Origin: a virus
Taxonomy: Duplodnaviria; Caudoviricetes
Virus record (IMG/VR): IMGVR_UViG_3300037755_000409
Coordinates: 1 to 55,991 of that record
Length of the DNA stretch: 55,991 nt
Direction: 5' to 3' (one strand)
The position numbers and the translations under genes were made by a program. Below are positions 5,961 to 45,101 of the stretch, piece after piece (position 1 is the first letter of the stretch; the number at the start of each line of letters is the position of its first letter). The notes under the pieces are model-generated. The model was given only the letters and a program-made list of their open reading frames with translations. It was not told the DNA's origin and searched no databases.

Positions 5961-6669
5961 ACGGCTTCAGCCATTCCGGCCGCGGATCGGCGCGCATGAT
6001 CAGATCGATGATTTCGAGATCCTGCACATCGTCGACGTCGAGCCCGGTAATCTTGTTCTCGATGATCGGGTGAATGCGATGCCCCATGAAATATGAGCGC
6101 CCACCATCCCATCCGCTGTGCCGGAACACCTCAAGATTGAAAGGCTTGTAAACCTTGGGAAACTCCGTGCGCCGCGCCTTCGAACGTCCGGCCGGCCACG
6201 TCATCGGCAGTAGCGGCTCGAGCCATCCCATTTCGCCGATCGTCTGCAGGCGCGCATCCGCCTCGCTGACGATGCGAACGGAATCGACGTGCGGCCTGGC
6301 CGCAAGCACGCATATCGCCTCTTCAACGCTTTCGATGCTACGGAATGGCGACGTCGGCTTGATCCATACCCAGATATCCGGCATCTCGCCGTTGCTGGCG
6401 ACGTAATCGGCGATAATATCCTCTTCCATCGCCGTGTCGGAACTGGCGTGCTCGCCGCGCTGATGCCACCAGATCATCGGCTCATACTCGGCAGCAAGGT
6501 CGACATACGCCTTTGAGTCGGTCGAGACCACAATGCGATCGATGTCGAGCTTTTTCGCGAAGTTCACCGCATGACCGATCAATGGCACGCCACCGGCCGG
6601 GCTGATGTTCTTGTCCGGCAAGCCCTTCGATCCGGCCCGCGCCGGAATCATCGCGAAAATTTTAGACAT
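5947..6669 (-). CDS. Acylneuraminate cytidylyltransferase (CMP-nonulosonate synthetase, NeuA-like)
   Basis: IPARAGSKGLPDKNI, VSTDS, PTSPFR, LDVDD motifs. Confidence 0.9.
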   Translation of the reverse strand: MSKIFAMIPARAGSKGLPDKNISPAGGVPLIGHAVNFAKKLDIDRIVVSTDSKAYVDLAAEYEPMIWWHQRGEHASSDTAMEEDIIADYVASNGEMPDIWVWIKPTSPFRSIESVEEAICVLAARPHVDSVRIVSEADARLQTIGEMGWLEPLLPMTWPAGRSKARRTEFPKVYKPFNLEVFRHSGWDGGRSYFMGHRIHPIIENKITGLDVDDVQDLEIIDLIMRADPRPEWLKPYVHA

Positions 6670-7165
6670 CGAACAGAGTCTCCACGATCACGTCGGCATT
6701 GATTTTGCATATTTCAGACCGCCACCAATCTGGCGGCTCAACAGTCAAATGAACATTTCTACCGTCAGGAAGTCTTTTGTGACGTGACGGAGCAGTCGCG
6801 ATTACAAAGAATACAAACTTTTTTGCGAACCCGATGACGTCAACGAGAAACGCTCCAACGTCACTCTTCGGAATATGCTCGGCGACGTCGGTGCATATTA
6901 CGCCGTCGAATTTCGTTGTCGGTTTAGCGGAATAAGGAATGTACCCAGGATCATAACAGGTCGGAAGAATGCCGCCCCACTGCTCGTGCTGTCGACGCTG
7001 AGTGTATTGAAAGCCCTTCCCGCTCCCGTAGTCCAATAAAGTGGCAGATTCAGTTCTCTCGATCAGACCGCGAATGCAATCAACGCTTCCGCCTGTAAAC
7101 TTGCCCCGGAACCGCTTAGGGTTCCGGTGCATAATTCTGTACTGGGTTATAAGATCGCGATTCAC
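6662..7165 (-). CDS. Class I SAM-dependent methyltransferase
   Basis: LLDYGSGKG, YDP, FDGVICTDVAEHIP. Confidence 0.88.
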   Translation of the reverse strand: MNRDLITQYRIMHRNPKRFRGKFTGGSVDCIRGLIERTESATLLDYGSGKGFQYTQRRQHEQWGGILPTCYDPGYIPYSAKPTTKFDGVICTDVAEHIPKSDVGAFLVDVIGFAKKFVFFVIATAPSRHKRLPDGRNVHLTVEPPDWWRSEICKINADVIVETLFDV

Positions 7166-10880: not shown

Positions 10881-11497
10881 TACCAGCGGTGCAGCCTGTA
10901 GGGACTGATCAGGACTTCACGCGTTTCGAAATGAGCGCCGCCGGCACCAAGATCCCCCGTTCCGCGCATCTCGAACGCATCGGCAATCGCAAAGAGCAGC
11001 GCATTCTCAATGTCTTCCGGCACTTCCGCGGCAAGCCATCCAGCCGTGAACGTGATCGTCACCGGTGCCGGCACGTCGCAGTCACCAGACGGCCAGCTTT
11101 CGCCGCGCAGTGGCATGAGCACACCGCCATTGTCGCCGGTCAGATCTTCCTGAAACCCTGCCGTCGTCGGCGATTCAGACGATGACGGTCCATAGATCGT
11201 CGTGAGCGCGCCATTCAGCGAATAGACGATGCTCTCGACGCTCTGCGTCTTGCCGCGCGGCAGTCGGATCCGCTCGCATGGAAAATCCTTCAGCACCCAT
11301 GTGTGCGACCGCGCGTAAATCGTGCGGCGCATTGCGCCTTCGGCCCAATGAATAGCCGCGAGAATATATTTTTCGATCAGCGCGTTGCTGTCGTCATCGA
11401 TAACGGCGAGGTGATCCTTCACGAGGCTCAAATCGAGCGGCAGCGGCGACACATCGAGCGCCGAAACACTAAGCGCTAGCGGCTGCAATTGCGTCAT
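10877..11497 (-). CDS. Head-tail connector (HK97 gp6-like)
   Basis: LSLVKDHL..DDD, VTITFTAGW, VPEDIENALL, LISPYR. Confidence 0.9.
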   Translation of the reverse strand: MTQLQPLALSVSALDVSPLPLDLSLVKDHLAVIDDDSNALIEKYILAAIHWAEGAMRRTIYARSHTWVLKDFPCERIRLPRGKTQSVESIVYSLNGALTTIYGPSSSESPTTAGFQEDLTGDNGGVLMPLRGESWPSGDCDVPAPVTITFTAGWLAAEVPEDIENALLFAIADAFEMRGTGDLGAGGAHFETREVLISPYRLHRWY

Positions 11498-12257
11498 TCA
11501 ATTCGACCTTGGGAAAACATGTCAAAGCGCTGTCCGGCGTAGCGTTCAAAATCCTGATGTCAGTCGGCAATCGCCGCGCAGCTCGCTCGAAATGCCTGGC
11601 GAAGCTCCGATAGTCGGCGGTGTTGCGAAGCCCTGCAGGGTGATTGCCGAAAAAATGCCGCTGCCTGCCTACCGACTGCATGTTGAAACCAACGAGAATG
11701 ATCGGATTGCCGCCTGCCAGGATCGCGATATTGAGCGCCTGGAAGCCGGAATTCGAACCGTAGTGAATGACGTCCGGATCCAGCGAAAAGCCGATTTCAT
11801 CGCAGCCGGCAACGAGATTGAGCCCGTAACGTTCGGCGGCAGTCGCCTTGTCGTTGTGCTTCTTCAATCCGTGCGACGACCATTTTTCGCCCGCGAAATT
11901 CGGACATCCGCCATGGTGGCGCCACCACATTTCATCGCAGGCGTAAAGCATATCGGCCCATGGCATGAGCCGGTATGCATCATTGACCGCGATCGTCGGC
12001 AGGCGGCTCGCCCGGCAGATCGCCGCCGCTTCCGGCGTCAGACCCGGTCCCGTCGCCGCCACTATCACCGGACAGCCCTTCCACTTCGGACTTATTTTCC
12101 GGAGGGGAACCGAGCTGCTTGTTTTCTGGCGCGACAGCTTTACGTCGTCCTGCAGGCCGGCCGCGGGCTTTGGGTGCCGCTGGCTCTTCAGCTTTCCTTT
12201 CTTTGACTTCAGTTCGGAGGACATGGCCAGCGCCGTCAAGCGCCGCGCACTGAGCAT
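11469..12257 (-). CDS. Maf/sialyltransferase-like glycosyltransferase (true start uncertain, ~12070-12257)
   Basis: VIVAATGPGL, IAVNDAY..PWAD.LYACD..WW, GSNSGFQALNIA, IILVGFNM, ILNATPDSALTCF. Confidence 0.65.
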   Translation of the reverse strand: MLSARRLTALAMSSELKSKKGKLKSQRHPKPAAGLQDDVKLSRQKTSSSVPLRKISPKWKGCPVIVAATGPGLTPEAAAICRASRLPTIAVNDAYRLMPWADMLYACDEMWWRHHGGCPNFAGEKWSSHGLKKHNDKATAAERYGLNLVAGCDEIGFSLDPDVIHYGSNSGFQALNIAILAGGNPIILVGFNMQSVGRQRHFFGNHPAGLRNTADYRSFARHFERAARRLPTDIRILNATPDSALTCFPKVELNDAIAAASA

Positions 12258-14466: not shown

Positions 14467-15854
14467 TGTGATTTCCTGTCTTCTGCGACGGCCCTCGCCA
14501 TCGTCGCCGTCCATCTGAGCGCGCTCAGCGCCTTGAACGTGGCGGCCTTTGCCGCTGCTTCAATCGCAGCTTCCGCATCCTCTTCCGTGCCATCCGCAGG
14601 CGCGCTATTTCCGTTCGCCGGCGGCTCAGCGCTCTGGCCGGACGGACCCTTGCGCCAGTACTCTTCCCCGCCATCCTCTTCGGAAATCGGATTCATATCC
14701 TCGTGTTCGCGCCAGTCATTGGCGTTGATGACGCCGGCCTGGCGCTGGATGTTGAGGCCTTCCTGGCGCGACTTGAAATCGCCGCGCAGCGCTGCGTCGA
14801 TGTTGAACCGGATGATGATGCCTGCGCGCCGGTCCGCCGGCGTCAGCAGCGAGCGCTCCATTGCCGCCTCGAGAATGCGCACATACGGCAAAACGACGTT
14901 GACGACGAAATCCAGCGATTGCTGCTCGACATTGTTGAAGGTGCCGCGGGACAGATCGCCGACCAGATGCGGCGGTACGCCAAACGCACCAGCGATCACC
15001 GTGCGTTGATATTGCCGCGTCTGCAGAAACTGCGCCTTTTCATGCTCAATCGAGATGGTATCGACGTCCATGCCGGACGGCACCACCATCGACTTGAACC
15101 GGCCCTTCTTCGAATAGGCGTTCTGAAAATCGTCGATAAACGCCTTTTCTTCCTCATTGGTCCTGAAGCCGCGCGAGGTTGCTGCGTGCTTGAAGATAAT
15201 CGATGGCATGGCCGAATTGCCAAAGACGGACGCACCCATGCGCTCGGCCGTGATCTCGAGCGCGATCGTCTCGCGAATGTCCATGATCGGACTATCACCC
15301 TTGACGCCGTCGCGCGCTGCGCCGCGCGCATGCAGCACCTGGTCCGGCCGAAACGTTCGATACGCGCCGTTTGCGAGCGTGGCGCGGTACGTCAAATCGA
15401 GGCTTTCCAGATCTTGGCTGATTTCGACACTGCCGGGATGCAACGGCACCAGCTCGCGAATAGGCCCCGTGACGCCGCGCGATTTGAAGTGGTACAAATT
15501 GCCGTAACGCATCAGCCAGCTCGTGGCGTCAAGCCAGAACGTGGTCCGATCCTGCCATCGGTTCGGCTCGGACAGCAGTCGCATTACCGGATGGTTCGGT
15601 TGGACTTCCTTGCGCACACGCGCTGGCTCACCATCCGTTACCACACGCTTCAGCACGCGAACCGGCAGACTGGCGATGCGCCGCGAGACGGCCGTGACGA
15701 CAGCGTTCACCGTTGTCGACTGCATGCAGTTTTCCGGCGTGACGGTAACGCCAGAGAAAGTGTCATTCGCCGAGATCAGCCGACGCAAGACGGAGTCGAT
15801 CGTCTCGCCTGTTGACTTCCGGGAAAGCGAAATGTCGAAGCCGAAAATCTTCAA
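14463..15854 (-). CDS. Portal protein, HK97 family
   Basis: PN.WQ, YGN.Y, GDSPI, QFLQTR, FGVPPHLVG, NVEQQ, LRGD. Confidence 0.96.
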   Translation of the reverse strand: MKIFGFDISLSRKSTGETIDSVLRRLISANDTFSGVTVTPENCMQSTTVNAVVTAVSRRIASLPVRVLKRVVTDGEPARVRKEVQPNHPVMRLLSEPNRWQDRTTFWLDATSWLMRYGNLYHFKSRGVTGPIRELVPLHPGSVEISQDLESLDLTYRATLANGAYRTFRPDQVLHARGAARDGVKGDSPIMDIRETIALEITAERMGASVFGNSAMPSIIFKHAATSRGFRTNEEEKAFIDDFQNAYSKKGRFKSMVVPSGMDVDTISIEHEKAQFLQTRQYQRTVIAGAFGVPPHLVGDLSRGTFNNVEQQSLDFVVNVVLPYVRILEAAMERSLLTPADRRAGIIIRFNIDAALRGDFKSRQEGLNIQRQAGVINANDWREHEDMNPISEEDGGEEYWRKGPSGQSAEPPANGNSAPADGTEEDAEAAIEAAAKAATFKALSALRWTATMARAVAEDRKSQ

Positions 15855-17395
15855 ACGAGAGTGACCCTGCCGCTAATAAACTGACGCGCATCGGCCTCTG
15901 CGGTAACGGCGACGCTTTTCGCCATTGCCAGGCTGACCAGCCCGTCAATCCGGCCGTTGCTCTTGTTCTTCGCCAGCTTGCGGTTGCCGGCCGGATCCGT
16001 TTGCACAACGGCGTTCGCCGCGCACATCGTCAAAATCGGATGACCGCCATGCGCGATTTTCTCATTAAGCAAATCGCTTTCAAGATCGCGCAACGCCGGC
16101 GACATGGATTGAAAGCCCTGCCCGAATTCGACAAAGCGTTCCAGATCATCCTCGGTGAAGCCCGCCTTCAGCAGCCACGGCTTGAGATGCCGGAAGTTCC
16201 AGCGGTCGAATGCGGTAGCCACGACGTCGAGCCTGTTGAAGATTTCCCAAAGCTGACAGGCAACCCATTCATATTCGATGGACTTGCCCGGCGTCACCTG
16301 CAGGTGGCCTTGATCATGCCATGTGTCGTAAGGCACACGATCCTTGCGCGCACGTTCCCGCAATCCGGTTTCCGGCAGCCAGAATGTCGGCTTGACGTGC
16401 CAGACGCCTTCGATGTCCGCGATCAGCGCCAACGCCGTCAGGTCGTTGCAGTCCGACAAATCGAGCCCGGCAAAAACCTGAAGCCCGGCGAAGCTGTCAA
16501 CCACCGGCGCGGCGCACCGCATCCAAACCGAACGCGAGACAAACGGCGCGTTCATCTCGACGCGCTGGTTGAGAATCAGATTGCGATATTCCGGCTCACG
16601 GCTCGGCATGCGCCGCGCATCTTCCGCCATTGCCATGACTTCATCGGCGTTCTGAAAATCACCATAGGCCGGATTGGCCTGCTTGATCGCCTCTTCGCCG
16701 AACGGATCCAGATTGATATCAGCGGTGTAGAGCGAAATCACAACGCGTGGATCATGGCCCGCAACCGCGTCATCGATCAGCACCGACAGTAAGTCGGATT
16801 CCGTCGGCGCCTGCGTCGAAATCACGATGGAAAGCGGCGATTCCTGCGCGGCCGTCGCCGTCTCGAGCGCTTCATAAAGCTCAGAACGAGGCCCTTTCAC
16901 CTGGCCAAGCTCGTCATGCACTATGAATACCGGCGACAGGCCATAAGCCGTCGACGCCTCAGCCGACAATGCACGGTAGAGCGTGCCAAGTTCTTCGCAG
17001 TACAGCTGCTTTGCCGTGTCGCGGATGCTGACGAAGGCAACCAGATCCGGCGACATGCGAACTGTCTTGGCGGCCAGGCCGAACAGAATACCCGCCTGAT
17101 CGCGTGACTGCGCCGCGCTGAACAGCTGCGAATTCGCGCGCGCTTCAGGCCCGCACAGATGCAGCAACAGCAGGAAAGCGGCGAGCGCGGTCTTGCCATT
17201 CTTGCGGCCAAAACTCAAAATGGCGCGCCTCGTACCGGCCGGATTATCATAGATTTTGCAGATCTCACGTCTTTGCCATTCCCGCATCTTGACCGGCCTG
17301 CCGACGAGGCGGCCTTCCGGAACGCGGCAATATTTCTCGATCCAGGCGACGTTGCGTTCACCGCGCGTCCGCTTGGCATTTACTCGCCTTCCCAA
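15851..17395 (-). CDS. terL: Terminase large subunit
   Basis: GRKNGKT Walker A, IVHDELG Walker B, ISTQ, GLDLS...DLTA, RIDGLV. Confidence 0.97.
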   Translation of the reverse strand: MGRRVNAKRTRGERNVAWIEKYCRVPEGRLVGRPVKMREWQRREICKIYDNPAGTRRAILSFGRKNGKTALAAFLLLLHLCGPEARANSQLFSAAQSRDQAGILFGLAAKTVRMSPDLVAFVSIRDTAKQLYCEELGTLYRALSAEASTAYGLSPVFIVHDELGQVKGPRSELYEALETATAAQESPLSIVISTQAPTESDLLSVLIDDAVAGHDPRVVISLYTADINLDPFGEEAIKQANPAYGDFQNADEVMAMAEDARRMPSREPEYRNLILNQRVEMNAPFVSRSVWMRCAAPVVDSFAGLQVFAGLDLSDCNDLTALALIADIEGVWHVKPTFWLPETGLRERARKDRVPYDTWHDQGHLQVTPGKSIEYEWVACQLWEIFNRLDVVATAFDRWNFRHLKPWLLKAGFTEDDLERFVEFGQGFQSMSPALRDLESDLLNEKIAHGGHPILTMCAANAVVQTDPAGNRKLAKNKSNGRIDGLVSLAMAKSVAVTAEADARQFISGRVTLV

Positions 17396-29154: not shown

Positions 29155-29949
29155 ATGGACGAAGGACAAGCCAAGGGCTGGCGGCAGGAACAGGCCAGAG
29201 AATTCGGCCGCCGTCTGCAATGGGCCAGAAAGCGCGCCGGATACAGCACACGCCGCGCAGTCATCGATGCCATGCCGGACAAATGGGGCATTGCCCCGCG
29301 CACTTATTATTCGCATGAGCGCGGCGAGCGCACGCCTGAGCGTGACGACACGCTGCAGCATTATTGCGAGCTGTTCAATGTGTCCCGCGAATTCCTGCTA
29401 TTCGGGACGGGAACAGAGCTCGCAGAGTTCAGCAAGACCGAAAGCCATGAAATTGCTGAACAAATTAACCACACTGCTAATCAGGTTTATGAAAAATCTT
29501 CCAAATTTGAAGCAGTCCGATATATTCCCATAATACGAGCGAGCAATATTGAAAAAATAATCTCGGGCAAGGGAACCTTAGCGAACATGACTAAGGAATT
29601 TCTACCGGTGTCCAGCAGCTTGCTCGCCGGACCTCGCAGTTTTGGCTATGAAATCGCGTCTGAAGACGACTCCATGATCGGTGATGGCGGCAAGACATTT
29701 TCGCCTGGATCCCATGTCGTGGCGGATCCCGATCGGGAAATCATGCCTGGCAAATTCCTGCTGGTGCAATTCCCCGGCATGGATCCGACAGTGCGGCAAT
29801 TGCAGGCCGGTTTTTCGTACAAACCGGACGCGCCACGATTTCCTTTCACGCTCAAAGCCTTGAACCCGCGCTTTGATCCCGTCACGATCGGGAATGCGGA
29901 TGAGTGCGTCATCCTCGGACGCGTGGTGTTTACCATAGAAGAACTTTGA
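29155..29949 (+). CDS. CI-like repressor (HTH + S24-like domain)
   Basis: RLQWARKRAG..YYSHERGER, FLLFGTG; DDSM..FSPG..V.ADPD; ILGRVV. Confidence 0.9.
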   Translation: MDEGQAKGWRQEQAREFGRRLQWARKRAGYSTRRAVIDAMPDKWGIAPRTYYSHERGERTPERDDTLQHYCELFNVSREFLLFGTGTELAEFSKTESHEIAEQINHTANQVYEKSSKFEAVRYIPIIRASNIEKIISGKGTLANMTKEFLPVSSSLLAGPRSFGYEIASEDDSMIGDGGKTFSPGSHVVADPDREIMPGKFLLVQFPGMDPTVRQLQAGFSYKPDAPRFPFTLKALNPRFDPVTIGNADECVILGRVVFTIEEL

Positions 29950-34015: not shown

Positions 34016-35194
34016 ATGGCACGCGTCAAGCTCAAATACGTGACCAGCGACCGCGACCGGCACGGAAACGTGCGCTTCTACTTTCGCCGGCGCGGCATGG
34101 CTCGCAAATTCCGCCTGCCCGGCCTACCGGGATCTGAAGACTTCATGGCGGCCTATCGCGCCGCGCTCGCCGGCTCGCCTGCCCCTGCCACCGAAGACAC
34201 GCCGGCGCGACCGCCTGTCATCAAAGGCACGGACTCATTCGAATGGCTCTGCGATCGCTACCGGCGCAGCCCGGAATTCACGAACAATCTGACCGAGGTA
34301 ACCCAGACACGCCGCGCGCAGATGCTGACTTCGATCTGCGCCGAGCCGCTAAGCGACGCCAGGCCGGTGCCGATCGGTCGCCTGCCCTACGATCAGATCA
34401 CTGCGAAAGCCATCCGACGCCTGCGCGACCGCCGCGCGGATCGCCCGAACGGCGCGAACAACATGATGAAGGCGCTCAAGGTGCTGATGAAATGGGCCGT
34501 CGAAGCTGATTATCTCGACCACAACCCGGCCAAGGATGTGCCGCTCATCGAGGTGCACAGCGAGGGCTATCACACCTGGACGGTGGATGAGGTCCGTCAG
34601 TTCGAGGCCCGGCACCCAGTCGGGAGCAAGGCGCGGCTGGCGCTTGCGCTAATGCTCTACACCGGCCAGCGCCGCTCGGATATCATCCGGTTCGGACGTC
34701 AGCATGTTCGCGGCGATATCCTGACCTTCACGCAGGCCAAGAACAAGGCGCGCAAGCCGGTCACCCTGACGCTTAATATACTGCCGCCGCTGGCCAGGAT
34801 CATCGAGGCGACGCCGAGCAGCAATCTTACATTTCTGGAGACCGCGCACGGCCGCCCATTCACTGGCAACGGCATTGGAAACAAGTTCCGCGAATGGTGC
34901 GATCAGGCGGGTTTACCGCACTGCACGGCTCACGGATTACGTAAAGCTGGCGCAACGATCGCCGCCGAACGCGGTGCGACGGAAAAGCAACTCATGGCGA
35001 TTTTCGGCTGGTCGACACTTGCGCAGGTTCAGAATTATACGCGGCGCGCAAGCCAGGCGAAACTGGCCGCGGGCGCGATGCATTATCTCGACTTCGACGA
35101 GAACGAAACAGAGACAAATGTGTCCCACCGGAAAAGGCAGGTTGAGAGTGGTGGGACAATTAGCGCGAAAACCGCTTTAAAATCAGGTTCTTAA
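34016..35194 (+). CDS. int: Tyrosine integrase
   Basis: YTGQRRSD (R), QAKN (K), HGLRK (HxxR), FGW, NYT (Y). Confidence 0.96.
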   Translation: MARVKLKYVTSDRDRHGNVRFYFRRRGMARKFRLPGLPGSEDFMAAYRAALAGSPAPATEDTPARPPVIKGTDSFEWLCDRYRRSPEFTNNLTEVTQTRRAQMLTSICAEPLSDARPVPIGRLPYDQITAKAIRRLRDRRADRPNGANNMMKALKVLMKWAVEADYLDHNPAKDVPLIEVHSEGYHTWTVDEVRQFEARHPVGSKARLALALMLYTGQRRSDIIRFGRQHVRGDILTFTQAKNKARKPVTLTLNILPPLARIIEATPSSNLTFLETAHGRPFTGNGIGNKFREWCDQAGLPHCTAHGLRKAGATIAAERGATEKQLMAIFGWSTLAQVQNYTRRASQAKLAAGAMHYLDFDENETETNVSHRKRQVESGGTISAKTALKSGS

Positions 35195-35314: not shown

Positions 35315-35510
35315 TTTCAGCGTCAGATTTTTCCTGATTTTCTGCAATCTCAAGTAGAAATCGGAAAACCGGCCGATCTGACGCATTCGTTGCGCCGGCC
35401 ATGCGCTACCGGAACGCCGCGCGAACACGCCAGCCGCAACAGATCTCACAAAAAAATATCCACAAGCCCGTCGATGATGATTCCAAAGCGAAAAAGCACG
35501 ATCCGTGCGA

Positions 35511-35556
35511 TGCACAATTGCGTGTACGCAAAAAAACTAGTTGCACAATACGTACA
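35511..35556. promoter_or_regulatory. Operator-like sites upstream of the GT2 gene
   Basis: TGCACAATTGCGTGTA 35511-35526 and TGCACAATACGTACA 35542-35556. Confidence 0.5.
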
Positions 35557-35623
35557 ATTAATTTTACTAAAAATGCACATTTCACGGGATATCATCATGC
35601 TTCAAAATCATTCCGCATACACG

Positions 35624-36571
35624 ATGACGCGCATTTGCCTTGGGGTTTGCACACGTCAGCGTCCCATCCTGCTTTCGCAATGCCTGGACTCGATTCAGGA
35701 TCTCGACATTCCCGACCAATCCGGTCTGATGATCGTCATCGTCGACAATGACGACACGGCCAGCGCCCGCGGGCTCGTCGAAGGCTTTCAGCGAGAAAAT
35801 CCAAATCTTGCCGTTTTCTATCTTCACGAGCCGCGCCGGGGCATCGCACTTGCACGCAACGCCATCCTGCGATTTGCACAGCAGCACCTCAGCGACTGGA
35901 TCGTGATGCTCGACGACGATCAGCGCGTGCCCTCGTCCTGGCTACTCGATCTGTTCGCGGCGCAATTCAAGACCGGCGCGGAAGTCGTCAAGTCATCCGT
36001 GACCTATCACTATCCTGATCCGCTGCCGCGCTGGGCGTTCCCGAAAGGCAGGCCGCACAAATGGCAGCTCAATGCCGAGATGGCGGCAACCAATGGTGTG
36101 CTGTTTTCCGGCGCACTGATCGACCCGCACGATTTCGGTCTGCGGTTCCGTGAAGCCTACAATCTGAGCTGCGGCGAGGATCGCGATTTTTTCAAGAGTG
36201 CGAGCATGGCCGGCGCGCTGATCGTCCACACGCCTGATGCCGTCGCCTATGAGATGATGCCGCCCTCCAAGCTGACATTCACGACGCAGGTGCGCCGGCA
36301 GTTTCACGAAGAATGGGTGAACACGCAGCAGGACATGCGTTTTCATGGCGCGTCCAGAACGATCCTGCGCAAGAGCTGCAAGGCAGCGCAAATGATCCTG
36401 CATGGCGCTATCCTGACGCTGCTCTCGCCGCTCAGCGCACTGTTCAGCCCAAGGCGCGGCCGCAAGCAGCTGTTGAAGGGCGCAAAGCGGTTTGCCAAGG
36501 CGTTCGGACTGATTACCGGCCTCGTTTCCAGCGCAAGACCTGCGCCTTATCAGAACGTACACGGATATTAA
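35624..36571 (+). CDS. GT2-family glycosyltransferase (ExoM-like)
   Basis: CTRQRP..L..CL, IVIVDND, GIALARN, MLDDD, CGED. Confidence 0.9.
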   Translation: MTRICLGVCTRQRPILLSQCLDSIQDLDIPDQSGLMIVIVDNDDTASARGLVEGFQRENPNLAVFYLHEPRRGIALARNAILRFAQQHLSDWIVMLDDDQRVPSSWLLDLFAAQFKTGAEVVKSSVTYHYPDPLPRWAFPKGRPHKWQLNAEMAATNGVLFSGALIDPHDFGLRFREAYNLSCGEDRDFFKSASMAGALIVHTPDAVAYEMMPPSKLTFTTQVRRQFHEEWVNTQQDMRFHGASRTILRKSCKAAQMILHGAILTLLSPLSALFSPRRGRKQLLKGAKRFAKAFGLITGLVSSARPAPYQNVHGY

Positions 36572-37780: not shown

Positions 37781-38304
37781 TGCGAAACTGCGGCGACTGC
37801 CAACTCTGCTGCCGCCTGTTGCCGGTCAAGTCGATCGGCAAGAAAGCGGGTACGCGCTGCATCCATCAGAAGCACGGCAAGGGATGCAAGATCTATGAGC
37901 GCCGGCCGAGCTGCTGCCGTCTGTGGTCGTGCGCCTGGCTGACAGGGAACGACACGACTGATCTGCGCCGTCCGGACCGCGCGCATTACGTCATCGACTG
38001 CATGCCGGAATTCATCAAGCTCAGCGACGACGCGACCGGCGAAATTCACAAAGTTCCCGTCGTGCAGATCTGGATCGATCCGCGCTATCCGAATGCGCAT
38101 GAGGATCCGGCATTGCGCCGTTTTCTGTTGCGGCGCGGTGCCGAAGGCGTTCTCGGCGTCATACGCTCAAGCGACGAAGACGGCTTTGTGATCTGCCCGC
38201 CGAATATGTCCGATGACGGACAATGGCATATCAAGGCGGGGCAATCCGAGGAAGCTCATTCGGTCGAGGAAATATTCGACGTACTGGAAAGGGGACACGT
38301 ATGA
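37780..38304 (+). CDS. YkgJ-like cysteine-cluster protein
   Basis: CGDCQLCC, C.H, C.IYERRP..C..W.C.W. Confidence 0.75.
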   Translation: MRNCGDCQLCCRLLPVKSIGKKAGTRCIHQKHGKGCKIYERRPSCCRLWSCAWLTGNDTTDLRRPDRAHYVIDCMPEFIKLSDDATGEIHKVPVVQIWIDPRYPNAHEDPALRRFLLRRGAEGVLGVIRSSDEDGFVICPPNMSDDGQWHIKAGQSEEAHSVEEIFDVLERGHV

Positions 38305-38588
38305 CACTGATCAAGGATCTCGGCGACGTCATCGCCAAAGAGACGAACACCAATCTTTGCGCGCACCATCGGATCACGGTCGCCCAGGCTATCGTGAAAT
38401 GGCTGACCGATTCCTTGTTTGCCGAGCATCGGGATCAGATCCTTATCGACATCGATATCATCTTGCTACGGATCGAAGGCAGCCGATCGAATGGAAGCGA
38501 CGCCGTGCTGGTTGAGCATGACAGCATGCTGCGAATGATTTCGTGCGTCCATGAGCTCATAGCGGCGAACCACAATGACGCGCACTGA
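38301..38588 (+). CDS. Hypothetical protein
   Basis: ATGA overlap with the upstream gene. Confidence 0.55.
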   Translation: MTLIKDLGDVIAKETNTNLCAHHRITVAQAIVKWLTDSLFAEHRDQILIDIDIILLRIEGSRSNGSDAVLVEHDSMLRMISCVHELIAANHNDAH

Positions 38589-38904
38589 TCCAGCCGGATT
38601 GCCTCACAGGCCGATCCTGAAACTGAAGCCCTCGCCGAGCTCGGAAAAAGAAAGTCGCCCTGCCTCGCCGGCGCTGCCGCTGACGAAACGTCAATGCGCG
38701 ATCATGAAGCTGGCAGCTGACGGCGTTCCGCAACGGATAATTGCCCAGCGGCTCGGCATATCGCACCGAACTGTCGAGATGCATGCGCGCCGCCTGCGCA
38801 AGCGGCTCGGCGCGACGACGATGGCGCAGGCCATCCTTATCGCCATCAGGCTCAAGCAAATCACCATCGAGGGATGCAATGCTCAAGGAAGTAAAATCGA
38901 TTGA
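38575..38904 (+). CDS. Stand-alone LuxR-type HTH regulator
   Basis: LTKRQ..IMKL.ADG.....IAQRLGISHRTVEMH......RLGA. Confidence 0.85.
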   Translation: MTRTDPAGLPHRPILKLKPSPSSEKESRPASPALPLTKRQCAIMKLAADGVPQRIIAQRLGISHRTVEMHARRLRKRLGATTMAQAILIAIRLKQITIEGCNAQGSKID

Positions 38905-39856
38905 GAAATCTGCCAAACTTGATCGCGCCGCCTGGCACAAGCCCCTGATCTCGATCGTCATCACGCATTTCAATTATGCGGACCATATCGAGGATGCGAT
39001 TCTGTCGCTACTCGATCAGACGTATCAAAATTGGGAATGCGTCATTGTCGACGATGCGTCGAGCTATGAGCAGCATGCGCGGCTCGTCGCGATCCTCGAC
39101 AGCATCAACAGCGCAAAAATCCGACTTGTCGAGCATGCAGAGAACCGTGGACAGATCCCGGCATTCTTCACCGGCCTCGACGCCACCAGCGGCGAATTCG
39201 TCAGCATGCTCGATCCCGACGATCGCTATGCGAAGACTTTTCTTAATGAAGCGCTTGGCGCACATCTGAACAACACGGTGATGTGTCCGATCGTGTCGAC
39301 GGATCAGTACCTCGTAAAAAACGACAGCGTGATAGCAATGGTGAACTCGCACCATTTGTTGGAACAATCCCGATGGATAGGCGGGCGCGCCGTCATCGAT
39401 GGCGAAACAGCCAGCTCGCTTTTTTACACCCCATCTGATCGGCCAGGCTGGCATTGGACAAGCACATCATCGCTGATGATGAGACGTTCAGCCCTGCAGT
39501 ATCTGAAACCAAACAAAGAGCTGATCACAAAGAACTCGGTTGATGCCTATGTCGCTCAGGGATTGCATCGACTTGGCGGCACGATCTTTCTGGCCAGGCC
39601 ACTTGTTTACCGCACCCTCCACGACTGCAATGAGTATATTTCCGACACGCTCTTTTCCTCATTGCAGCATCAGGCGAGACCCACCGCCGTCAGCGCAGAG
39701 CGTGAGCTCCTGCTCGATGCCATCGATGCCATGAAGCATAACGGCGCGCCCATCCCCTCATGCGCGCTGAAGCCTAAGAAGCCCGGCCTGCTGGCGAAGT
39801 GGCGGCGCTCATTCAGCAAGCGTTGGCAAAAGCTCTTCGGGAAAAGCGCGCGATGA
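38879..39856 (+). CDS. GT2-family glycosyltransferase
   Basis: ISIVITHFNY, SLLDQTY.NWECVIVDDAS, NRGQ, LDPDD. Confidence 0.9.
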   Translation: MLKEVKSIEKSAKLDRAAWHKPLISIVITHFNYADHIEDAILSLLDQTYQNWECVIVDDASSYEQHARLVAILDSINSAKIRLVEHAENRGQIPAFFTGLDATSGEFVSMLDPDDRYAKTFLNEALGAHLNNTVMCPIVSTDQYLVKNDSVIAMVNSHHLLEQSRWIGGRAVIDGETASSLFYTPSDRPGWHWTSTSSLMMRRSALQYLKPNKELITKNSVDAYVAQGLHRLGGTIFLARPLVYRTLHDCNEYISDTLFSSLQHQARPTAVSAERELLLDAIDAMKHNGAPIPSCALKPKKPGLLAKWRRSFSKRWQKLFGKSAR

Positions 39857-41520
39857 CCGAGAAAATGCTGCGCGGCTCCAAGATCCGCATTTTCCCGACA
39901 AAGCGCCAGACACGACTTCTGGACCTATGGCGCAAGCGAACGATATCGCTCTGGAACCTGTTGCTCTCGCTCGAACAGGCGGCATATGGCGGCGAGAACA
40001 CGCGCTCGAAACTCGGCTGGCGTTCGATATGGGCGCGCGTGCTGGAAGAAAACCACGCCAAGACCTATGCCGCATGGGAAAACGGCAAGACCATCCGCGT
40101 CGGGAAAAACAAGGGCAAGGTCATCCCGCCATGCGACGGGCCAGCGCCAGAACCGGTCAATCCGGAAGTCCTAGCGAAAATCAATCGCTCGAGCAGTGAG
40201 ATGAACCCGGAAACCGGCGAACGCCTGCCGGCGAAGCTTTTCATGTGGGATACCGAGCTGCTTGCCATCATGGCGCGGCTGAAACAGGTGCCGCGCACTG
40301 AGTGGATTGCCGACCTGCCGTCCCATGCCGCACAGCGCGTCGTGAAAGATCTGATATCTGCCCTGCAGGCCATGCTCCGTGAGCGGCGTAAGCGCGCCAG
40401 CGGTGCAGGCGGGCGCGATACAGGCTTTCCGAAATTCAAGAAGAACCGCTACGGCGCAGGCAGCGTCTACTTCGCCAACACGCAGCTCGAATTCGATTTC
40501 GAAAATCAGCGCGTGCGATTTCCAAATGGCTGCGGCTGGATGCGATGCGAGTTGCCACGGCACTTGCGCAGTCAGGCGCTCGAAGACCGGTCGAAGATCA
40601 AGCTGATGGGCGGCCGCGTCTGGCGTCAAGGCGAGCGCACATATCTGTCCTGCCAGTGGGAAGTGGAAAGACCTGCGGCACTGAAGCCGACAGGACGCAC
40701 GGCCGGCGTCAAGATCGGCGCGAAGGTGTTGCTCACCACCTATGACGATCGCGGGCAGACACGCGAATATACGATGCCCGAGCCCGACAAGAAGCTGGAA
40801 ACACTACACCGCGTTGCGGCGAAGAGGCTGTCGCGCTCGATAGAGGCGCAGAAGAAGCGGGAGAAGAGGATCAAAGCAAACGGCTACAGCCAGCGTCGCG
40901 AAAAGCGCCTCGTCGCAACAGGCAAGAAGGACAGGCCGTTAAGGCTTCGTCGCACGCCAGGGTTCTACGCATCTGCCGCGCGGCTTGCTGGCTATGAGGC
41001 CATCGAGCGCGATCGGCGCGATGGGTTTCTGCACGAACTCACGACAAGCCTTGTCCGCCGGTTCGATGCCATCGCCGTCCAGCGCTTCGAAGTTGCGCGG
41101 TTGATGGAAAAGGAATCGACAAAGAAGAAACGCCGCCTGGCGCGAATCGACAATGCGGTTGAGCGCAATGCGACTGCGGAAGATATAAAGAAGCAACGGC
41201 CGATGAAGCCGGTCCGCAAGCTGATGCGCCGCGTCGCCATGGCTCGCTGTGGCCAGCTGCTGGAATACAAGTTCAAGGATCTGCGCGGGCCGGACGCCTT
41301 TCAGAAAATCGATCCGCATGATGTGAATGCCACGGCGTGCTCTGGCTGCGGAAGCATTCACCCCAAGTGGAAAGAAGCAAGCGGCATCATGCGCTGTCAT
41401 GAAGTGCTCGCCAGTGGCGAGATTTGCGGAACGGCATTGCCGCGCAACCGCAATGCCGCGCGATTGACGAAGCGGGAACTGGACGTCAGGCGCAAGGCCA
41501 AAATCAAGGAGGCAGTCTGA
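39853..41520 (+). CDS. TnpB/Cas12f-like type V effector with inactivated RuvC (555 aa)
   Basis: KIRIFPT..Q N-terminus, GFPKFKK, RuvC-I GVKIG, RuvC-II IAVQRF, Zn finger CSGC...C...C, RuvC-III RNRNAA; adjacent to cas1, cas2 and the array. Confidence 0.88.
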   Translation: MTEKMLRGSKIRIFPTKRQTRLLDLWRKRTISLWNLLLSLEQAAYGGENTRSKLGWRSIWARVLEENHAKTYAAWENGKTIRVGKNKGKVIPPCDGPAPEPVNPEVLAKINRSSSEMNPETGERLPAKLFMWDTELLAIMARLKQVPRTEWIADLPSHAAQRVVKDLISALQAMLRERRKRASGAGGRDTGFPKFKKNRYGAGSVYFANTQLEFDFENQRVRFPNGCGWMRCELPRHLRSQALEDRSKIKLMGGRVWRQGERTYLSCQWEVERPAALKPTGRTAGVKIGAKVLLTTYDDRGQTREYTMPEPDKKLETLHRVAAKRLSRSIEAQKKREKRIKANGYSQRREKRLVATGKKDRPLRLRRTPGFYASAARLAGYEAIERDRRDGFLHELTTSLVRRFDAIAVQRFEVARLMEKESTKKKRRLARIDNAVERNATAEDIKKQRPMKPVRKLMRRVAMARCGQLLEYKFKDLRGPDAFQKIDPHDVNATACSGCGSIHPKWKEASGIMRCHEVLASGEICGTALPRNRNAARLTKRELDVRRKAKIKEAV

Positions 41521-42377
41521 TGTTTCGCGGCCGCCTTGGTCTGGAGAAGATTCGCATCCCTTATAATTCGCGGCACGCGCTTGTGTGGCTGGATCGCGGA
41601 CGCCTGGATGTCGCCGATGGCTGCCTGCGCTTTGTCACGGCTGGTGGCACGCTGGAGGCTGGTGAGTACGAAATTCCGCACGAGGCAATCAGCATGGTGC
41701 TGCTCGGGCCGGGATCGAGCGTCACCCATGACGCGTTGCGGATATTGGCCAGCCACGGGACAGCGCTGGCTGCGATCGGCGAAGGCGGTGTCCGGCTCTA
41801 TACGGCGCCACCGATGATGACGGCGAGCTCAGCGCTCGCGCGACGCCAGGCATCGGCCTGGGCGTCACCCAAAGAACGAATCGCAGTTGCCCGGAAGATG
41901 TATGCGCTACGCCTTGGCGAGATCCTGCCGCACCGGGATATAGAAGTCCTGCGCGGCATCGAGGGCGCGCGCGTCAAGAAGGCGTATTGGGAAAAAGCTG
42001 AGGAATTCGGAATTGACTGGCGCGGCCGTCGATACGATCGTGCCGATCCACAATCGGCCGACGCTCCAAACCAGGCGATTAATCATGCCTCAAGCGCCGT
42101 GCGGTCCGCCGCGGCAATTGCCGTGATGGCGACCGCGACAATCCCGCAGCTGGGCTTTGTCCATGAAGATAGTTCCCAAGCATGGATACTCGATGTTGCC
42201 GATCTTTATCGGGATGAGGTCACGCTGAACATCGCGTTCGGCGCGGTGAAGGATGCCGACAAAAATCTCGTTACGCTCGAACGCGCTGTTCGACTTCGCG
42301 CTGCGACTGTCTTCGATGAGGAAAATGTGATTCCATCCATGATTGAACGAATCCGCACACTATTGAGCGAGCCATGA
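41520..42377 (+). CDS. cas1: Cas1, type I-E-like
   Basis: LLGPGSSVTHDA, GEGGVRLY, LRGIEGARV (E), NQAIN, LGFVH (H), LDVADLY (D); catalytic set intact. Confidence 0.96.
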   Translation: MFRGRLGLEKIRIPYNSRHALVWLDRGRLDVADGCLRFVTAGGTLEAGEYEIPHEAISMVLLGPGSSVTHDALRILASHGTALAAIGEGGVRLYTAPPMMTASSALARRQASAWASPKERIAVARKMYALRLGEILPHRDIEVLRGIEGARVKKAYWEKAEEFGIDWRGRRYDRADPQSADAPNQAINHASSAVRSAAAIAVMATATIPQLGFVHEDSSQAWILDVADLYRDEVTLNIAFGAVKDADKNLVTLERAVRLRAATVFDEENVIPSMIERIRTLLSEP

Positions 42378-42676
42378 GCCATGCCCTGACCGTGATTATC
42401 ACCCGCGATGTGGAGCCACGCTATCGAGGGTTGCTCAGATCAGCAATGCTTGAGGTCGCGGCAGGCGTCTACATCAGCGCAAGCTTTAATCGCGAAGCAC
42501 GTGATAGGCTTTGGGAAATAGTATCGCGCTGGCATAAAGCATTGAATCGCGGATCTGTGATTATGATCTGGCGTGATCGCAGTTCTGTTGCCGACATAGG
42601 GTTAAAAACACTTGGAAAAACAACAAGAGAATATGCAGAAACCGACGGATTACTATTGACGCGTCTGCGCACATAG
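42374..42676 (+). CDS. cas2: Cas2, type I-E-like
   Basis: TRDVEPRYRGLL...MLEVAAGVY, RDRLW, DGLLL. Confidence 0.93.
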   Translation: MSHALTVIITRDVEPRYRGLLRSAMLEVAAGVYISASFNREARDRLWEIVSRWHKALNRGSVIMIWRDRSSVADIGLKTLGKTTREYAETDGLLLTRLRT

Positions 42677-42684
42677 AATAATCA

Positions 42685-42900
42685 TTCGCTTACCGCTTCG
42701 GCGGTCTAGGGCCGTAGTCCGGCACCGAAGTTAAGCCCGCTGTAAGATCTTCTGGATCGTATGGCTGCCCTTGTAAGACCTGCCACACTTCCAGGCAGGC
42801 AGGGGCATCGGAGCCCCCTCTGTCGGCGGAACCTCATTCGTGAGGGTCTACGAGACACGGGGCGTTGAAGGGGGAATCCTTGCGTGTTCTGAACGACCGA
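42685..42900 (+). ncRNA. Putative tracrRNA (omegaRNA-like scaffold)
   Basis: Anti-repeat 42877-42898 pairs 20/22 with repeat nt 1-22; GTCCG 42717-21 pairs with repeat CGGAC; two UUCG-capped hairpins and nested stems; ends approximate. Confidence 0.8.
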
Positions 42901-42942
42901 TCTTTGAAAATCTGGAGATGCGACAGCGACTTAGCTGCTAGA
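42899..42942 (+). promoter_or_regulatory. Short CRISPR leader
   Basis: Lies between the anti-repeat and repeat 1; TCTTTGAAAATC motif and TAGA junction recall I-E leaders. Confidence 0.55.
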
Positions 42943-43702
42943 GGTCGCTCTGAGTGCGCGGGGACGGACGGTCAGACCGGCCCCGCTCCCACCACAGCTC
43001 ATTGGTCGCTCTGAGTGCGCGGGGACGGACGTCTTCCGTGGTGGGATCGATTGCTCGGAACCTAGGTCGCTCTGAGTGCGCGGGGACGGACGTCAAAAGT
43101 TCCATCACATCAATGATCTGTCCGGGGTCGCTCTGAGTGCGCGGGGACGGACGGTATTAGAGGCAATTATAGATGAATCAGGAAATGGTCGCTCTGAGTG
43201 CGCGGGGACGGACGCTGTCACAACTGCTGACTCCTCCCCGCATACCCGGTCGCTCTGAGTGCGCGGGGACGGACGCTGCTCATTCAGAACCTCCTCCCAT
43301 GTCGGGTAGGTCGCTCTGAGTGCGCGGGGACGGACGTTCCGGGAGGGTCCTTGGCAAATCTCCAACTGGGGTCGCTCTGAGTGCGCGGGGACGGACGGCT
43401 GTAGCGTAATCGTAGTGCTAGGCATCACTCGGTCGCTCTGAGTGCGCGGGGACGGACGATGAACTGCCGAAAGAGCTTGAGATTGCGCGGCGGTCGCTCT
43501 GAGTGCGCGGGGACGGACGTAGGCCACGTCTCCCTCTACGCGGCTCATCCGAGGTCGCTCTGAGTGCGCGGGGACGGACGTTTAACGGACATTATTTGCA
43601 CATAGGTTTCAGTGGTCGCTCTGAGTGCGCGGGGACGGACGTTACGGCAACATCAATCGGCCCGCTCACACTTTGGTCGCTCTGAGTGCGCGGGGACGGA
43701 CG
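42943..43702 (+). CRISPR. CRISPR array: 13 identical 28-bp repeats GGTCGCTCTGAGTGCGCGGGGACGGACG and 12 spacers of 33 bp
   Basis: Exact 61-bp period from 42943 to 43675; unique spacers. Confidence 0.99.
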
Positions 43703-43715
43703 GCAGGGGAAAGAA

Positions 43716-43737
43716 CACGACGCCGAAGGCGCTCGTG
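43716..43737. terminator. Hairpin between the array and the convergent lysis genes
   Basis: CACGACGCC-GAA-GGCGCTCGTG; no clear U-tract. Confidence 0.35.
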
Positions 43738-43781
43738 CAGTCTTGATGCGCAGGGTGGACGAATAACGGGCAATGCGCAGG

Positions 43782-44129
43782 CTATTGCAGCTTGCACAGC
43801 GCATCCCAGGCAGCGTTGTGCTCGCGGATCTTTTTCACCAGTTCCGGCCGATCCAGTTTCTGAGAATACAGGATAGGCTCGAAAGCTTCGCAGGCCGTGT
43901 CGACAACAGATTGTTGTGTTGGTTGCTCACAGAGAATCCCCTTGCTGACGCCGAACACCTGCAGATCAAATATACAAACCCGCGACTCAGCCGCATCAGT
44001 CGATGTTGTATGGATCATCAGGATCAGGCTCGCTATCAGCAGCACGCTTGCGCGCCGCGCGCGCTTCCTGAATGCGATCATTTGAAATCTGTAACCCTTC
44101 AAGGATTGCCTTCGCCTCGCCAGCCGCAA
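43782..44129 (-). CDS. Putative o-spanin-like protein (start uncertain)
   Basis: Overlaps the Rz-like gene; hydrophobic segment, Cys residues, DTAC...HNAAW..LC. Confidence 0.55.
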   Translation of the reverse strand: MRLARRRQSLKGYRFQMIAFRKRARRASVLLIASLILMIHTTSTDAAESRVCIFDLQVFGVSKGILCEQPTQQSVVDTACEAFEPILYSQKLDRPELVKKIREHNAAWDALCKLQ

Positions 44130-44208
44130 TCAGCTCACGCTCGCGTAGAAACGTCACGACGATCGTGACGGCCTGCAGCGTGAGCGCGATCAGCTTTAGC
44201 CAGGTCAT
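43996..44208 (-). CDS. Putative i-spanin (Rz-like)
   Basis: N-terminal TM, helical body, DPDDPY end. Confidence 0.65.
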   Translation of the reverse strand: MTWLKLIALTLQAVTIVVTFLRERELIAAGEAKAILEGLQISNDRIQEARAARKRAADSEPDPDDPYNID

Positions 44209-44378
44209 GCAGAGCGATCACGGTTCCAGACCCACCACCAAACAAACGCGCCAATCCCGAGCACGCCACTGATTACGCCCTGATAGAGCTCACCATCCGC
44301 AACGCTTTCGCCGAACAGATAACCGCCGATGGCATAAAGGACGATCCGGACCAACTGCTGTATGCTGTCCCAAGTCAT
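44205..44378 (-). CDS. Putative holin (57 aa)
   Basis: MTWDSIQQLVRIVLYAIGGYL...VISGVLGIGAFVWWWVW; two TM segments; AAGGAG RBS. Confidence 0.75.
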   Translation of the reverse strand: MTWDSIQQLVRIVLYAIGGYLFGESVADGELYQGVISGVLGIGAFVWWWVWNRDRSA

Positions 44379-44393
44379 GATGACTCCTTTGGT

Positions 44394-45101
44394 TTAAAGC
44401 TGCGCACACTGAACGTGCATCCAGTCGTAATTTGCGACTCGCCCCAAGCTTACCCAGCCCTCAGCTTCCCAGATTTCCCAGAACGGCACGGCGTCAGGCT
44501 GACCAAGCCGCGCCTGGTCGCGCCCCCACTTGAGCTGATTGCGCTGATCGTCAAAGTCGATTGCAATGCCCCAGGAATGCGTCGACCAGGTCGAGCCGCC
44601 GCGCTTCTTGCGAGGCGCGCTAAGGCATCCGCTGAAAATATCGAGGCCGAGATCCGCGCGCTGCTTTTCGTCGAACGTTTCTGCGATGCGTTTGAAGCAG
44701 CGCGCCGCGCTGGCGTGACACTTTTTATGAATTGAAAAGCGCGTGATCTGCTCATCGAGATCCCAGGCCAGTCGCATCGGATAGGGAAGGTCGAGCGACT
44801 TCAGGTGCTTGCCCATTGCGCCGTAGAATGCAGGCACTGCGGATTCGTGCGGCCATGGGCCATCTTTTGGATAAAGCGGCTGAACCGGCTCGGCCTGCCG
44901 ATCCTCGATGACGCCATCCGGCCACAAGATGTCGTCGACATCATTCGAGCCCGCTGTGAGCTTGTGCCAGTCCTGCGCTTCGTGAATCGCGGCCCGCGTG
45001 CGGTTGCCGAGGATGCCGTCAGCCGGGCCCGGATCGAAACCGAGCTCGGCGAGGCGCAATTGAACTTTGTGAGTCCAGGTCGTCACATTTGCTATCCCCA
45101 A
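44394..45101 (-). CDS. Endolysin: PG-binding domain + M15 peptidase
   Basis: VQ.RL..LGFDPGPADG..G.RT..AI; STHSWGIAIDFD; DWMHVQ. Confidence 0.92.
   Translation of the reverse strand: MGIANVTTWTHKVQLRLAELGFDPGPADGILGNRTRAAIHEAQDWHKLTAGSNDVDDILWPDGVIEDRQAEPVQPLYPKDGPWPHESAVPAFYGAMGKHLKSLDLPYPMRLAWDLDEQITRFSIHKKCHASAARCFKRIAETFDEKQRADLGLDIFSGCLSAPRKKRGGSTWSTHSWGIAIDFDDQRNQLKWGRDQARLGQPDAVPFWEIWEAEGWVSLGRVANYDWMHVQCAQL

Follow-up and report, generated by a model that had tools for sequence, protein, structure and literature searches.

The window analysed here is the whole of IMG/VR virus record IMGVR_UViG_3300037755_000409, 55,991 nucleotides (nt) long with a GC content of 0.578, which is a complete virus record with direct terminal repeats of 127 base pairs (bp). 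It carries a CRISPR locus in which a gene for a TnpB-derived, Cas12-like effector is followed by cas1, cas2 and a repeat array. Our subject is an element inside the 266-nt gap between cas2 and the array (42677-42942), which we interpret as a putative trans-activating CRISPR RNA (tracrRNA). The original prediction, drawn from the letters of the DNA alone, had placed here a tracrRNA-like RNA carrying two anti-repeats, one long and one short, and the sequences and coordinates that it gave were all as it described them. The locus comprises the following features.

39799..41520, plus strand: TnpB-derived Cas12-like effector, open reading frame (ORF) of 573 amino acids (aa), with a weak match to Pfam OrfB_IS605
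41424..42377, plus strand: cas1 of the type I-E kind (296 bits for NCBIfam cas1_ECOLI, whose cut-off is 215.6; PADLOC Cas1e, E = 9e-139)
42374..42676, plus strand: cas2 of the type I-E kind (Pfam Cas_Cas2CT1978; 81 bits for NCBIfam Cas2e, whose cut-off is 33)
42687..42898, plus strand: putative tracrRNA element, about 212 nt
42899..42942, plus strand: leader, 44 nt, with conserved motifs TCTTTGAAAA and CTTAGC..CTAGA (13-locus alignment)
42943..43702, plus strand: CRISPR array of 13 identical 28-nt repeats, GGTCGCTCTGAGTGCGCGGGGACGGACG, with a 61-nt period
43735..43762, plus strand: degenerate terminal repeat closing spacer 13, read from the sequence

A conserved RNA between cas2 and the array

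Relatives of the locus were collected through the effector and by scans of DNA. A word-indexed protein search returned 94 effector relatives at E ≤ 0.001, nearly all of them metagenomic. An exhaustive search of 1.84 billion representatives returned 37 at E ≤ 1e-30; the matches that came next were ordinary TnpBs, about 400 aa long. Alignment-based scans contributed 32 metagenome loci and 7 viral loci. Counting duplicate copies, 16 of 41 effector loci have a CRISPR array downstream. L163, a close relative of the window, came from a motif scan of viral contigs. A looser DNA pattern scan of viral contigs gave at least 116 stretches, of which 80 (L042-L121) were examined, and the element was present in L076 only. 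Prokaryote genomes yielded a single weak locus, and GenBank phages contained no close homologue of the effector or of the tracrRNA element.

We aligned the 300 nt upstream of the first repeat from 13 loci and found a conserved block of about 210-230 nt. The element was modelled with a profile hidden Markov model and then with a covariance model, R1, of 216 positions and 46 pairs. R1 matched once per locus in 14 distinct loci, and L163 makes a fifteenth at 168 bits. Scores ranged from 198 bits in the window, where cmsearch reported no other match, down to 28-42 bits in four distant loci (L015-L018). Across the 15 loci the element always has the same strand and lies between the effector gene or cas2 and the array. 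Comparison of these loci shows that the element, about 212 nt long, is a conserved RNA with five predicted helices, whose paired segments are numbered as helices 1-9 in the following list.

42692..42705, plus strand: stem 1, ACCGC-TTCG-GCGGT (helices 1-2; double changes in 5/5 pairs, 96-98% of cells paired)
42709..42726, plus strand: hairpin 2, loop 42714-42720 (helix 3; double changes in 5/5 pairs)
42717-42720, plus strand: short anti-repeat GUCC in the loop of hairpin 2, pairing with repeat nt 24-27
42736..42738 with 42872-42874, plus strand: candidate pseudoknot, CCC with GGG, invariant in 12/14 loci
42739..42765, plus strand: stem 3 (helix 4; double changes in 8/9 pairs, 90.5% of cells paired)
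42766..42807, plus strand: stem 4, TGCCC/GGGCA and inner CCTGCC/GGCAGG, with an internal loop that holds an invariant GTAAG (helices 5-6, co-varying)
42813..42863, plus strand: stem 5, GCCCC/GGGGC, TGTC/GACA and inner CCTCA-TTCG-TGAGG (helices 7-9, co-varying)
42867..42876, plus strand: single-stranded motif GAAGGGGGAA, directly 5' of the long anti-repeat and near-invariant in 14 loci
42877..42898, plus strand: long anti-repeat TCCTTGCGTGTTCTGAACGACC, pairing with repeat nt 1-22

Support for this structure came from two alignments. In a plain MAFFT alignment of 11 sequences, RNAalifold predicted 45 pairs, 28 of which had compensatory changes. In a 14-sequence alignment fitted to R1, 87.5% of cells were paired compared with 67.2% in shuffles, and 35 of the 46 intramolecular pairs showed double changes; none of 500 shuffles reached either value. 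When the 3' partners were slid by 1-3 columns as a control, 38-49% of cells remained paired. Covariation among homologous loci, whose absence the original prediction had said would count against it, is present in these 35 pairs.

Three of the stems had been proposed beforehand. Those at 42692-42705 and 42813-42863, the latter with its inner hairpin, are real and co-vary, and in L163 the inner hairpin of stem 5 is swapped with compensation. The stem at 42766-42807 held up in its outer 5 bp and its inner CCTGCC/GGCAGG, both of which co-vary, and fared less well in its TTG/CAG extension, which is partly conserved with pairs in 8, 8 and 12 of 14 loci. Hairpin 2, stem 3 and the candidate pseudoknot are additions to these stems. 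The unpaired motifs GTAAG and GGCAYYGGAG are, like GAAGGGGGAA, near-invariant in the 14 loci. The CCC/GGG segments of the candidate pseudoknot show a U-A double change in L016, and a G-C double change in L041 only if GGCGG is aligned gap-free, which together give a faint hint of a possible interaction.

The long anti-repeat matches repeat nt 1-22 with 15 Watson-Crick pairs, 5 G-U pairs and 2 mismatches, a count that was the same when we repeated it. Pairing at 20/22 was reached in 4 of 5000 shuffles of the 266-nt gap, on either strand, and somewhere in 7 of 30 shuffles of the whole 56-kb window. We thus regard the match as significant because of its conservation and its place 44 nt upstream of the first repeat, and not on the pairing count alone. 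The original prediction had read the plus-strand orientation from the wobble pairs. This agrees with the best match of only 15/22 on the minus strand of the intergenic gap and with the contents of the paired columns, where 57 G-U cells against 16 A-C cells favour a plus-strand RNA. Co-folding of the element with repeat 1 and spacer 1 in RNAcofold, a check that had been suggested, gave a minimum-energy structure that contains the long duplex.

The long duplex is retained where the repeats differ. In nine loci with differing repeats, 17-21 of 22 positions pair, with a mismatch at repeat nt 6 in eight of them, and the mean was 19.3 pairs for cognate and 16.9 for non-cognate combinations. Compared with the window, L163 has changes at repeat nt 7, 10, 13 and 15 and at four positions of the anti-repeat. 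By hand count its duplex still has 15 Watson-Crick pairs, 5 G-U pairs and 2 mismatches, including an exchange of G-C to A-U.

For the short duplex, the loop of hairpin 2 forms at least 4 contiguous pairs with the 3' end of its own repeat in 13 of 14 loci (3 in L008), and the pairing occurs in 8 sequence versions. The combinations of loop and repeat are GUCC/GGAC, GUCU/GGAC, GCUU/AGGC, CUGCC/GGCAG, CUCG/CGAG, GCCA/UGGC, CGUGC/GCACG, CGCAU/AUGCG and GGUCC/GGACC. Among non-cognate combinations with different repeat tails, 21% reach 4 pairs. The paired repeat positions, indexed by hand, are nt 24-27 both in the 28-nt repeats of the near clade and in the 29-nt repeat of L015. Unconstrained prediction of duplexes between the repeat 3' end and the 5' region of the RNA chose a different place in each locus. 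The GTCCG at 42717-42721 that had been put forward as the short anti-repeat carries no weight alone, and gains its weight because loop-repeat complementarity recurs across loci. Its 4-bp core is conserved, whereas the fifth pair, made by G42721, competes with the hairpin stem.

Effector, adaptation genes and spacers

The longest effector ORF overlaps the upstream gene and relatives suggest a later start, probably at M38 (~39910). The effector matches PADLOC profile PDLC01226 'Cas12_x2', labelled CAS-V-F effector, over its full length (E = 2e-211), and its family is therefore already in Cas profile collections. No NCBIfam model scored above its cut-off for the effector, the TnpB family reaching 84 bits against 100. 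We obtained an AlphaFold model with a predicted local distance difference test score of 87 and a predicted template modelling (TM) score of 0.77. With this model, Foldseek ranked ISDra2 TnpB nearest (E = 1e-16, TM-score by target 0.64-0.77) and further matched ISFba1 TnpB, AsCas12f (E = 5e-14), Cas12p and Cas12m.

At the columns of the RuvC triad the effector has K305, Q428 and N550 in place of Asp-Glu-Asp; 7 of 9 TnpB comparators have D, E and D there (alignment A3). Each of the 9 family rows of A3 has K at the RuvC-I position, and in a second alignment, A1, K305 does not vary across 43/43 rows. Members of the near clade have Q at RuvC-II, and at RuvC-III these family rows of A3 show N, R, Q or L. 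For the first two motifs, an HMMER alignment to ISDra2 TnpB gives the same picture. The original prediction had not remarked on this replacement. The zinc-finger cysteines C514, C517, C533 and C543 are conserved. From these alignments, the effector family looks nuclease-dead. Some members are longer, at 685-711 aa, and contain an inserted DUF2695 (PF10905), as in L038 (5950-8007) and L041 (5998-8133).

The longest ORF of cas1 also overlaps its upstream gene, and the Cas1e profile places the start probably near 41520. In addition to the window, cas1-cas2 are present in L003, L005, L007, L019, L036, L041 and L163. Remnants occur in two loci: at 7911-8281 of L038, between effector and tracrRNA, cas1 (aa 1-52) is fused to cas2 (aa 26-99), and L008 has a 26-aa piece of cas1 at 1956-2033. 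These remnants imply secondary loss of the adaptation genes with the tracrRNA and array kept. There was no trace of cas1-cas2 in the distant loci L015-L018 or in L014. Where cas1-cas2 are missing, the start of the element coincides with the end of the effector gene or follows it closely, and the L015 element overlaps the ORF end. The view that cas1-cas2 separate the RNA from its effector gene is borne out by this arrangement.

Directly 5' of the first repeat, the leader has the consensus motifs TCTTTGAMAW and CTTAGCNNCTAGA, which could be a promoter or an integration signal. Every array in the related loci has a 61-nt period. In the window the hairpin of the repeat is decayed, and the repeats of L017 (2035-2342) and L018 (~2150-2240) still fold into one, which we take to be in the style of I-E repeats. 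Without cas1-cas2 of their own, these two loci might rely on a I-E integrase of the host.

The leader of L163 is identical to that of the window, yet its 18 spacers and the 13 of the window have none in common. A contig from another study (X3) is unchanged over 42806-42970 and then continues with a different spacer. Both findings point to active spacer uptake. We also considered contig junctions in a sequencing run (X1) as spacer polymorphism of the window phage and rejected them, one inserted spacer being a spacer of L163; the junctions show only related arrays.

A proposed type V system and its alternatives

Covariation inside the RNA, together with covariation of both anti-repeats with their own repeats, makes it very likely that the element is a tracrRNA of type V whose layout is the combination of a long and a short duplex known from Cas12b, f, g and l. 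This agrees with the tracrRNA-like RNA with two anti-repeats that had been predicted. By the same comparisons, we consider it highly probable that 42687-42898 on the plus strand acts as the tracrRNA of a phage-borne type V CRISPR system. The loci show that the last 22 nt pair with nt 1-22 of each repeat to give the long duplex, and that the loop of hairpin 2 pairs with repeat nt 24-27, directly 5' of the spacer, to give the short duplex, making a pseudoknot. In the mechanism that we propose, host RNase III would cut the duplex of tracrRNA and precursor CRISPR RNA, as has been proposed for other tracrRNA-dependent type V systems, and the dual RNA would load the 573-aa TnpB-like effector encoded upstream of cas1-cas2. 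Because Lys-Gln-Asn replaces Asp-Glu-Asp in RuvC, the complex would bind and block target DNA without cutting it. Such blocking would shield lysogen or phage against competing elements, and Cas1e-Cas2e would go on adding 33-nt spacers.

We lean towards the binding-only mechanism with some reserve. A broader proposal, which we put forward tentatively and consider somewhat doubtful, is that temperate phages carry a hybrid adaptive system. Adaptation and the array would be derived from type I-E, the tracrRNA would replace Cas6e processing on I-E-type repeats, and a nuclease-less TnpB-derived effector would silence competing phages and plasmids, with relatives that lack cas1-cas2 borrowing a I-E integrase from the host. 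If true, this would be a natural, self-updating form of CRISPR interference for superinfection exclusion.

A number of observations weigh against the tracrRNA interpretation. A search for RNA data covering 41500-43800 listed none, and the four sequencing runs compared with the locus consist of DNA contigs. The 14-sequence alignment was fitted to the structure, which favours it, and the MAFFT result serves as the unfitted control. Folded by itself, the sequence has an unremarkable energy (z = -1.15 on the plus strand, with 25/200 shuffles equal, and -1.53 on the minus strand), and the cognate long duplex was the row maximum, best or tied, in only 7 of 9 loci. We found no convincing promoter: a sigma-70-like site at 42656-42685, which runs over the cas2 end, matches at 9/12, and chance would be expected to give 0.7 sites of this quality. 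No terminator-like site follows the anti-repeat. These last two results would equally fit an element that is the 5' part of a long transcript running from the cas operon or cas2 into the array, in which the anti-repeat folds back on the first repeat over the 44-nt leader. The outcome would be a natural single guide for spacer 1, resembling an omegaRNA, with later spacers maybe served in trans. The shared strand, the distance of only 44 nt from anti-repeat to first repeat and the conservation of the leader accord with such a transcript. However, arrays of 6 to 23 repeats with changing spacers require trans pairing beyond the first repeat, and the conserved TTGAMA-like leader motif could be the array's own promoter. 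We judge the long transcript fairly unlikely, and it is compatible with a tracrRNA.

Type I-E integrases use leader sequences, and the element lies directly upstream of the array. Its conservation might accordingly be that of DNA, as an extended leader with binding sites for the integrase or host factors and not an RNA gene. Against this stand the maintenance of helices by double changes, the excess of G-U over A-C cells, the covariation of the loop and 3' end with the repeat as RNA pairs that include G-U, and the retention of the element in loci without cas1-cas2. We give conservation at the DNA level hardly any credence.

The binding-only mechanism also faces contrary points. Nuclease loss is read from alignments, four distant members of A3 have D or E at RuvC-II, and rearranged RuvC sites are known in TnpBs as described in PMC10691335. 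The system might thus cut DNA, either through a rearranged active site in the effector or through a recruited nuclease of the host or phage, with the tracrRNA serving ordinary interference. The PADLOC profile, which files the family under V-F, whose studied members cut, speaks for cutting as well. However, the RuvC-I aspartate is lysine in every one of the 43 aligned relatives, the family rows of A3 have only N, R, Q or L at RuvC-III, and no conserved nuclease gene adjoins the effector in the related loci scanned. Cutting therefore seems improbable to us. As for targets, the 114 unique spacers of 13 arrays had no protospacer at ≥ 27/33, nor the 18 spacers of L163 at ≥ 26/33, in the window and all loci collected. 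Comparison of GenBank phages with the spacers gave only chance-level matches (E = 3), and two exact 23-nt spacer pieces had no match in IMG/VR. These comparisons accordingly gave neither targets nor a protospacer adjacent motif.

Among known systems, Cas12b, f, g and l combine a long bulged and a short repeat:anti-repeat stem with a pseudoknot beside the guide, according to PMC11246509. The original prediction had called the two-duplex layout that of Cas12f and Cas12k. Cas12f stands, together with b, g and l, whereas PMC11246509 reports a long duplex and a triple helix for Cas12k. A close parallel is Cas12f1 (V-F1). As here, its long bulged stem is accompanied by a short stem in a pseudoknot by the guide (PMC11246509), its scaffold of ~200 nt (PMC12255294) is of similar size, its RNA gene lies between cas genes and array on the same strand, and its effector is small and TnpB-like. 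The present element differs in that the short stem has 4-5 bp and sits in a hairpin loop, the repeats are 28 nt long and of the I-E kind, and the RuvC triad is replaced. Moreover, an Rfam scan of 38000-45000 found no family that fits the element, and two chance matches elsewhere. Of the features of Cas12f, the effector has the small TnpB-like RuvC fold, the zinc finger and the V-F profile match, but not the intact Asp-Glu-Asp triad.

The omegaRNAs of TnpB (IS200/IS605, ISDra2) are alike in several respects. ISDra2 TnpB is the closest match to the effector fold, the guide follows the scaffold on its 3' side, and in relatives without cas1-cas2 the RNA begins where the effector gene ends. In contrast, scaffold and guide are separate RNAs here and the guide comes from a CRISPR array, cas1-cas2 intervene between effector gene and RNA in the window, and neither TnpA, transposition genes nor transposon element ends were found in the window by Pfam scan, PHROGs scan or inspection of the sequence. 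A proposed likeness of GTAAGACC and GTTGAAG..GGAATCC to right-end RNAs of IS605 TnpBs was not confirmed, Rfam giving no match. Nor did R1 recover an omegaRNA in the nearest TnpB loci with an intact triad (L164, L165, L166 and L169), its best score being 5 bits (E = 0.7), although fast divergence could hide homology. We infer descent of the tracrRNA from an omegaRNA from gene order and the TnpB-like effector, and not from demonstrated homology.

Other comparisons concern effectors that do not cut. Cas12k (V-K) is a type V effector whose RuvC is naturally inactive and which works with a tracrRNA (10.1101/2021.07.07.451486), as we infer here. As described in PMC10691335 it resides in Tn7-like transposons without cas1-cas2; the present locus has no transposition genes and an active-looking adaptation module. 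PMC12669027 lists interference without cleavage, through a block to transcription, as demonstrated for V-C and V-M and as a prediction for V-O and V-P. Unlike the present system, Cas12m is placed by PMC10691335 with the subtypes whose arrays come without further cas genes and is not in the list of tracrRNA-dependent subtypes in PMC11246509, and Cas12c is reported with three short duplexes (PMC11246509). TldR and dCas12f-sigmaE are nuclease-dead relatives of TnpB and Cas12f with RNA-guided DNA binding, TldR being phage-encoded; in the account of PMC13472631 they use fixed single guides without tracrRNA or adaptation genes, compared with cas1-cas2 and spacer turnover here. As PMC10910872 and PMC13472631 describe them, none of the inactivated systems CasMu-V, Cas12 with IscB and dCas12f-sigmaE has the present layout.

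With type I-E the locus shares Cas1e and Cas2e above cut-offs and the 61-nt period. Unlike type I-E, it has no Cascade or Cas3 genes that a PHROGs scan of 55 window ORFs or a Pfam scan of 13 could find, and its repeat, with the decayed hairpin, pairs with the tracrRNA instead. More broadly, PMC10691335 counts ~50 independent origins of type V from TnpB, describes 40 new V-U groups, and reports capture of adaptation modules on at least 12 occasions. Of these groups, V-U24, 43 and 44 have altered catalytic sites, and V-U24 is linked to a helix-turn-helix protein (PMC10691335). The supplements of PMC10691335 and PMC12669027 that were searched gave no placement of the effector family in V-U24, 43, 44, V-O or V-P. 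Our literature search turned up no account of temperate phages in which a TnpB-like effector with an inactive RuvC accompanies Cas1e-Cas2e and a tracrRNA, though this does not prove that there are none. The element is thus of a kind already known, a type V tracrRNA with a Cas12f-like layout, and its effector family is covered by a V-F-labelled profile. What is unusual is the seemingly dead nuclease, the adaptation module and repeats of I-E type, and a temperate phage as carrier.

For a type V tracrRNA of which we found no description, these results provide a secondary-structure model that has comparatively good support and in which both sites of guide pairing are mapped. Such a model is needed for the design of a single guide for a compact (~540-570 aa), apparently nuclease-free DNA binder. 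A tracrRNA that co-evolves with repeats of I-E origin also bears on how TnpB-like proteins captured arrays and adaptation modules. If the binding-only mechanism holds, phage-encoded adaptive immunity without cleavage would join the few known cases (V-C and V-M).

The carrier phage

The carrier genome is a temperate tailed phage, as follows from its set of PHROGs matches: terminase, portal, head, tail, primase, CI-like repressor, integrase, GtrB-like glycosyltransferase and endolysin. On one side of the CRISPR locus is the integrase region and on the other are the lysis genes, and its surroundings are lysogeny and 'moron' genes. Landmark genes in the window are as follows.

15851-17395: terminase
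29155-29949: CI-like repressor
34016-35194: integrase
44394-45101: endolysin

Genes for family-2 glycosyltransferases recur near the effector. The window has two, at 35390-36571 and 38741-39856, the latter GtrB-like (O-antigen conversion), and others lie in L036 (3579-4604), L038 (75-1085) and L041 (11709-12767). They are probably lysogenic-conversion genes and not parts of the CRISPR system. Inside the head and tail block of the window, a sialyltransferase-like gene (phrog_4603; 11469-12257) and a methyltransferase gene (6662-7165) both lie on the minus strand.

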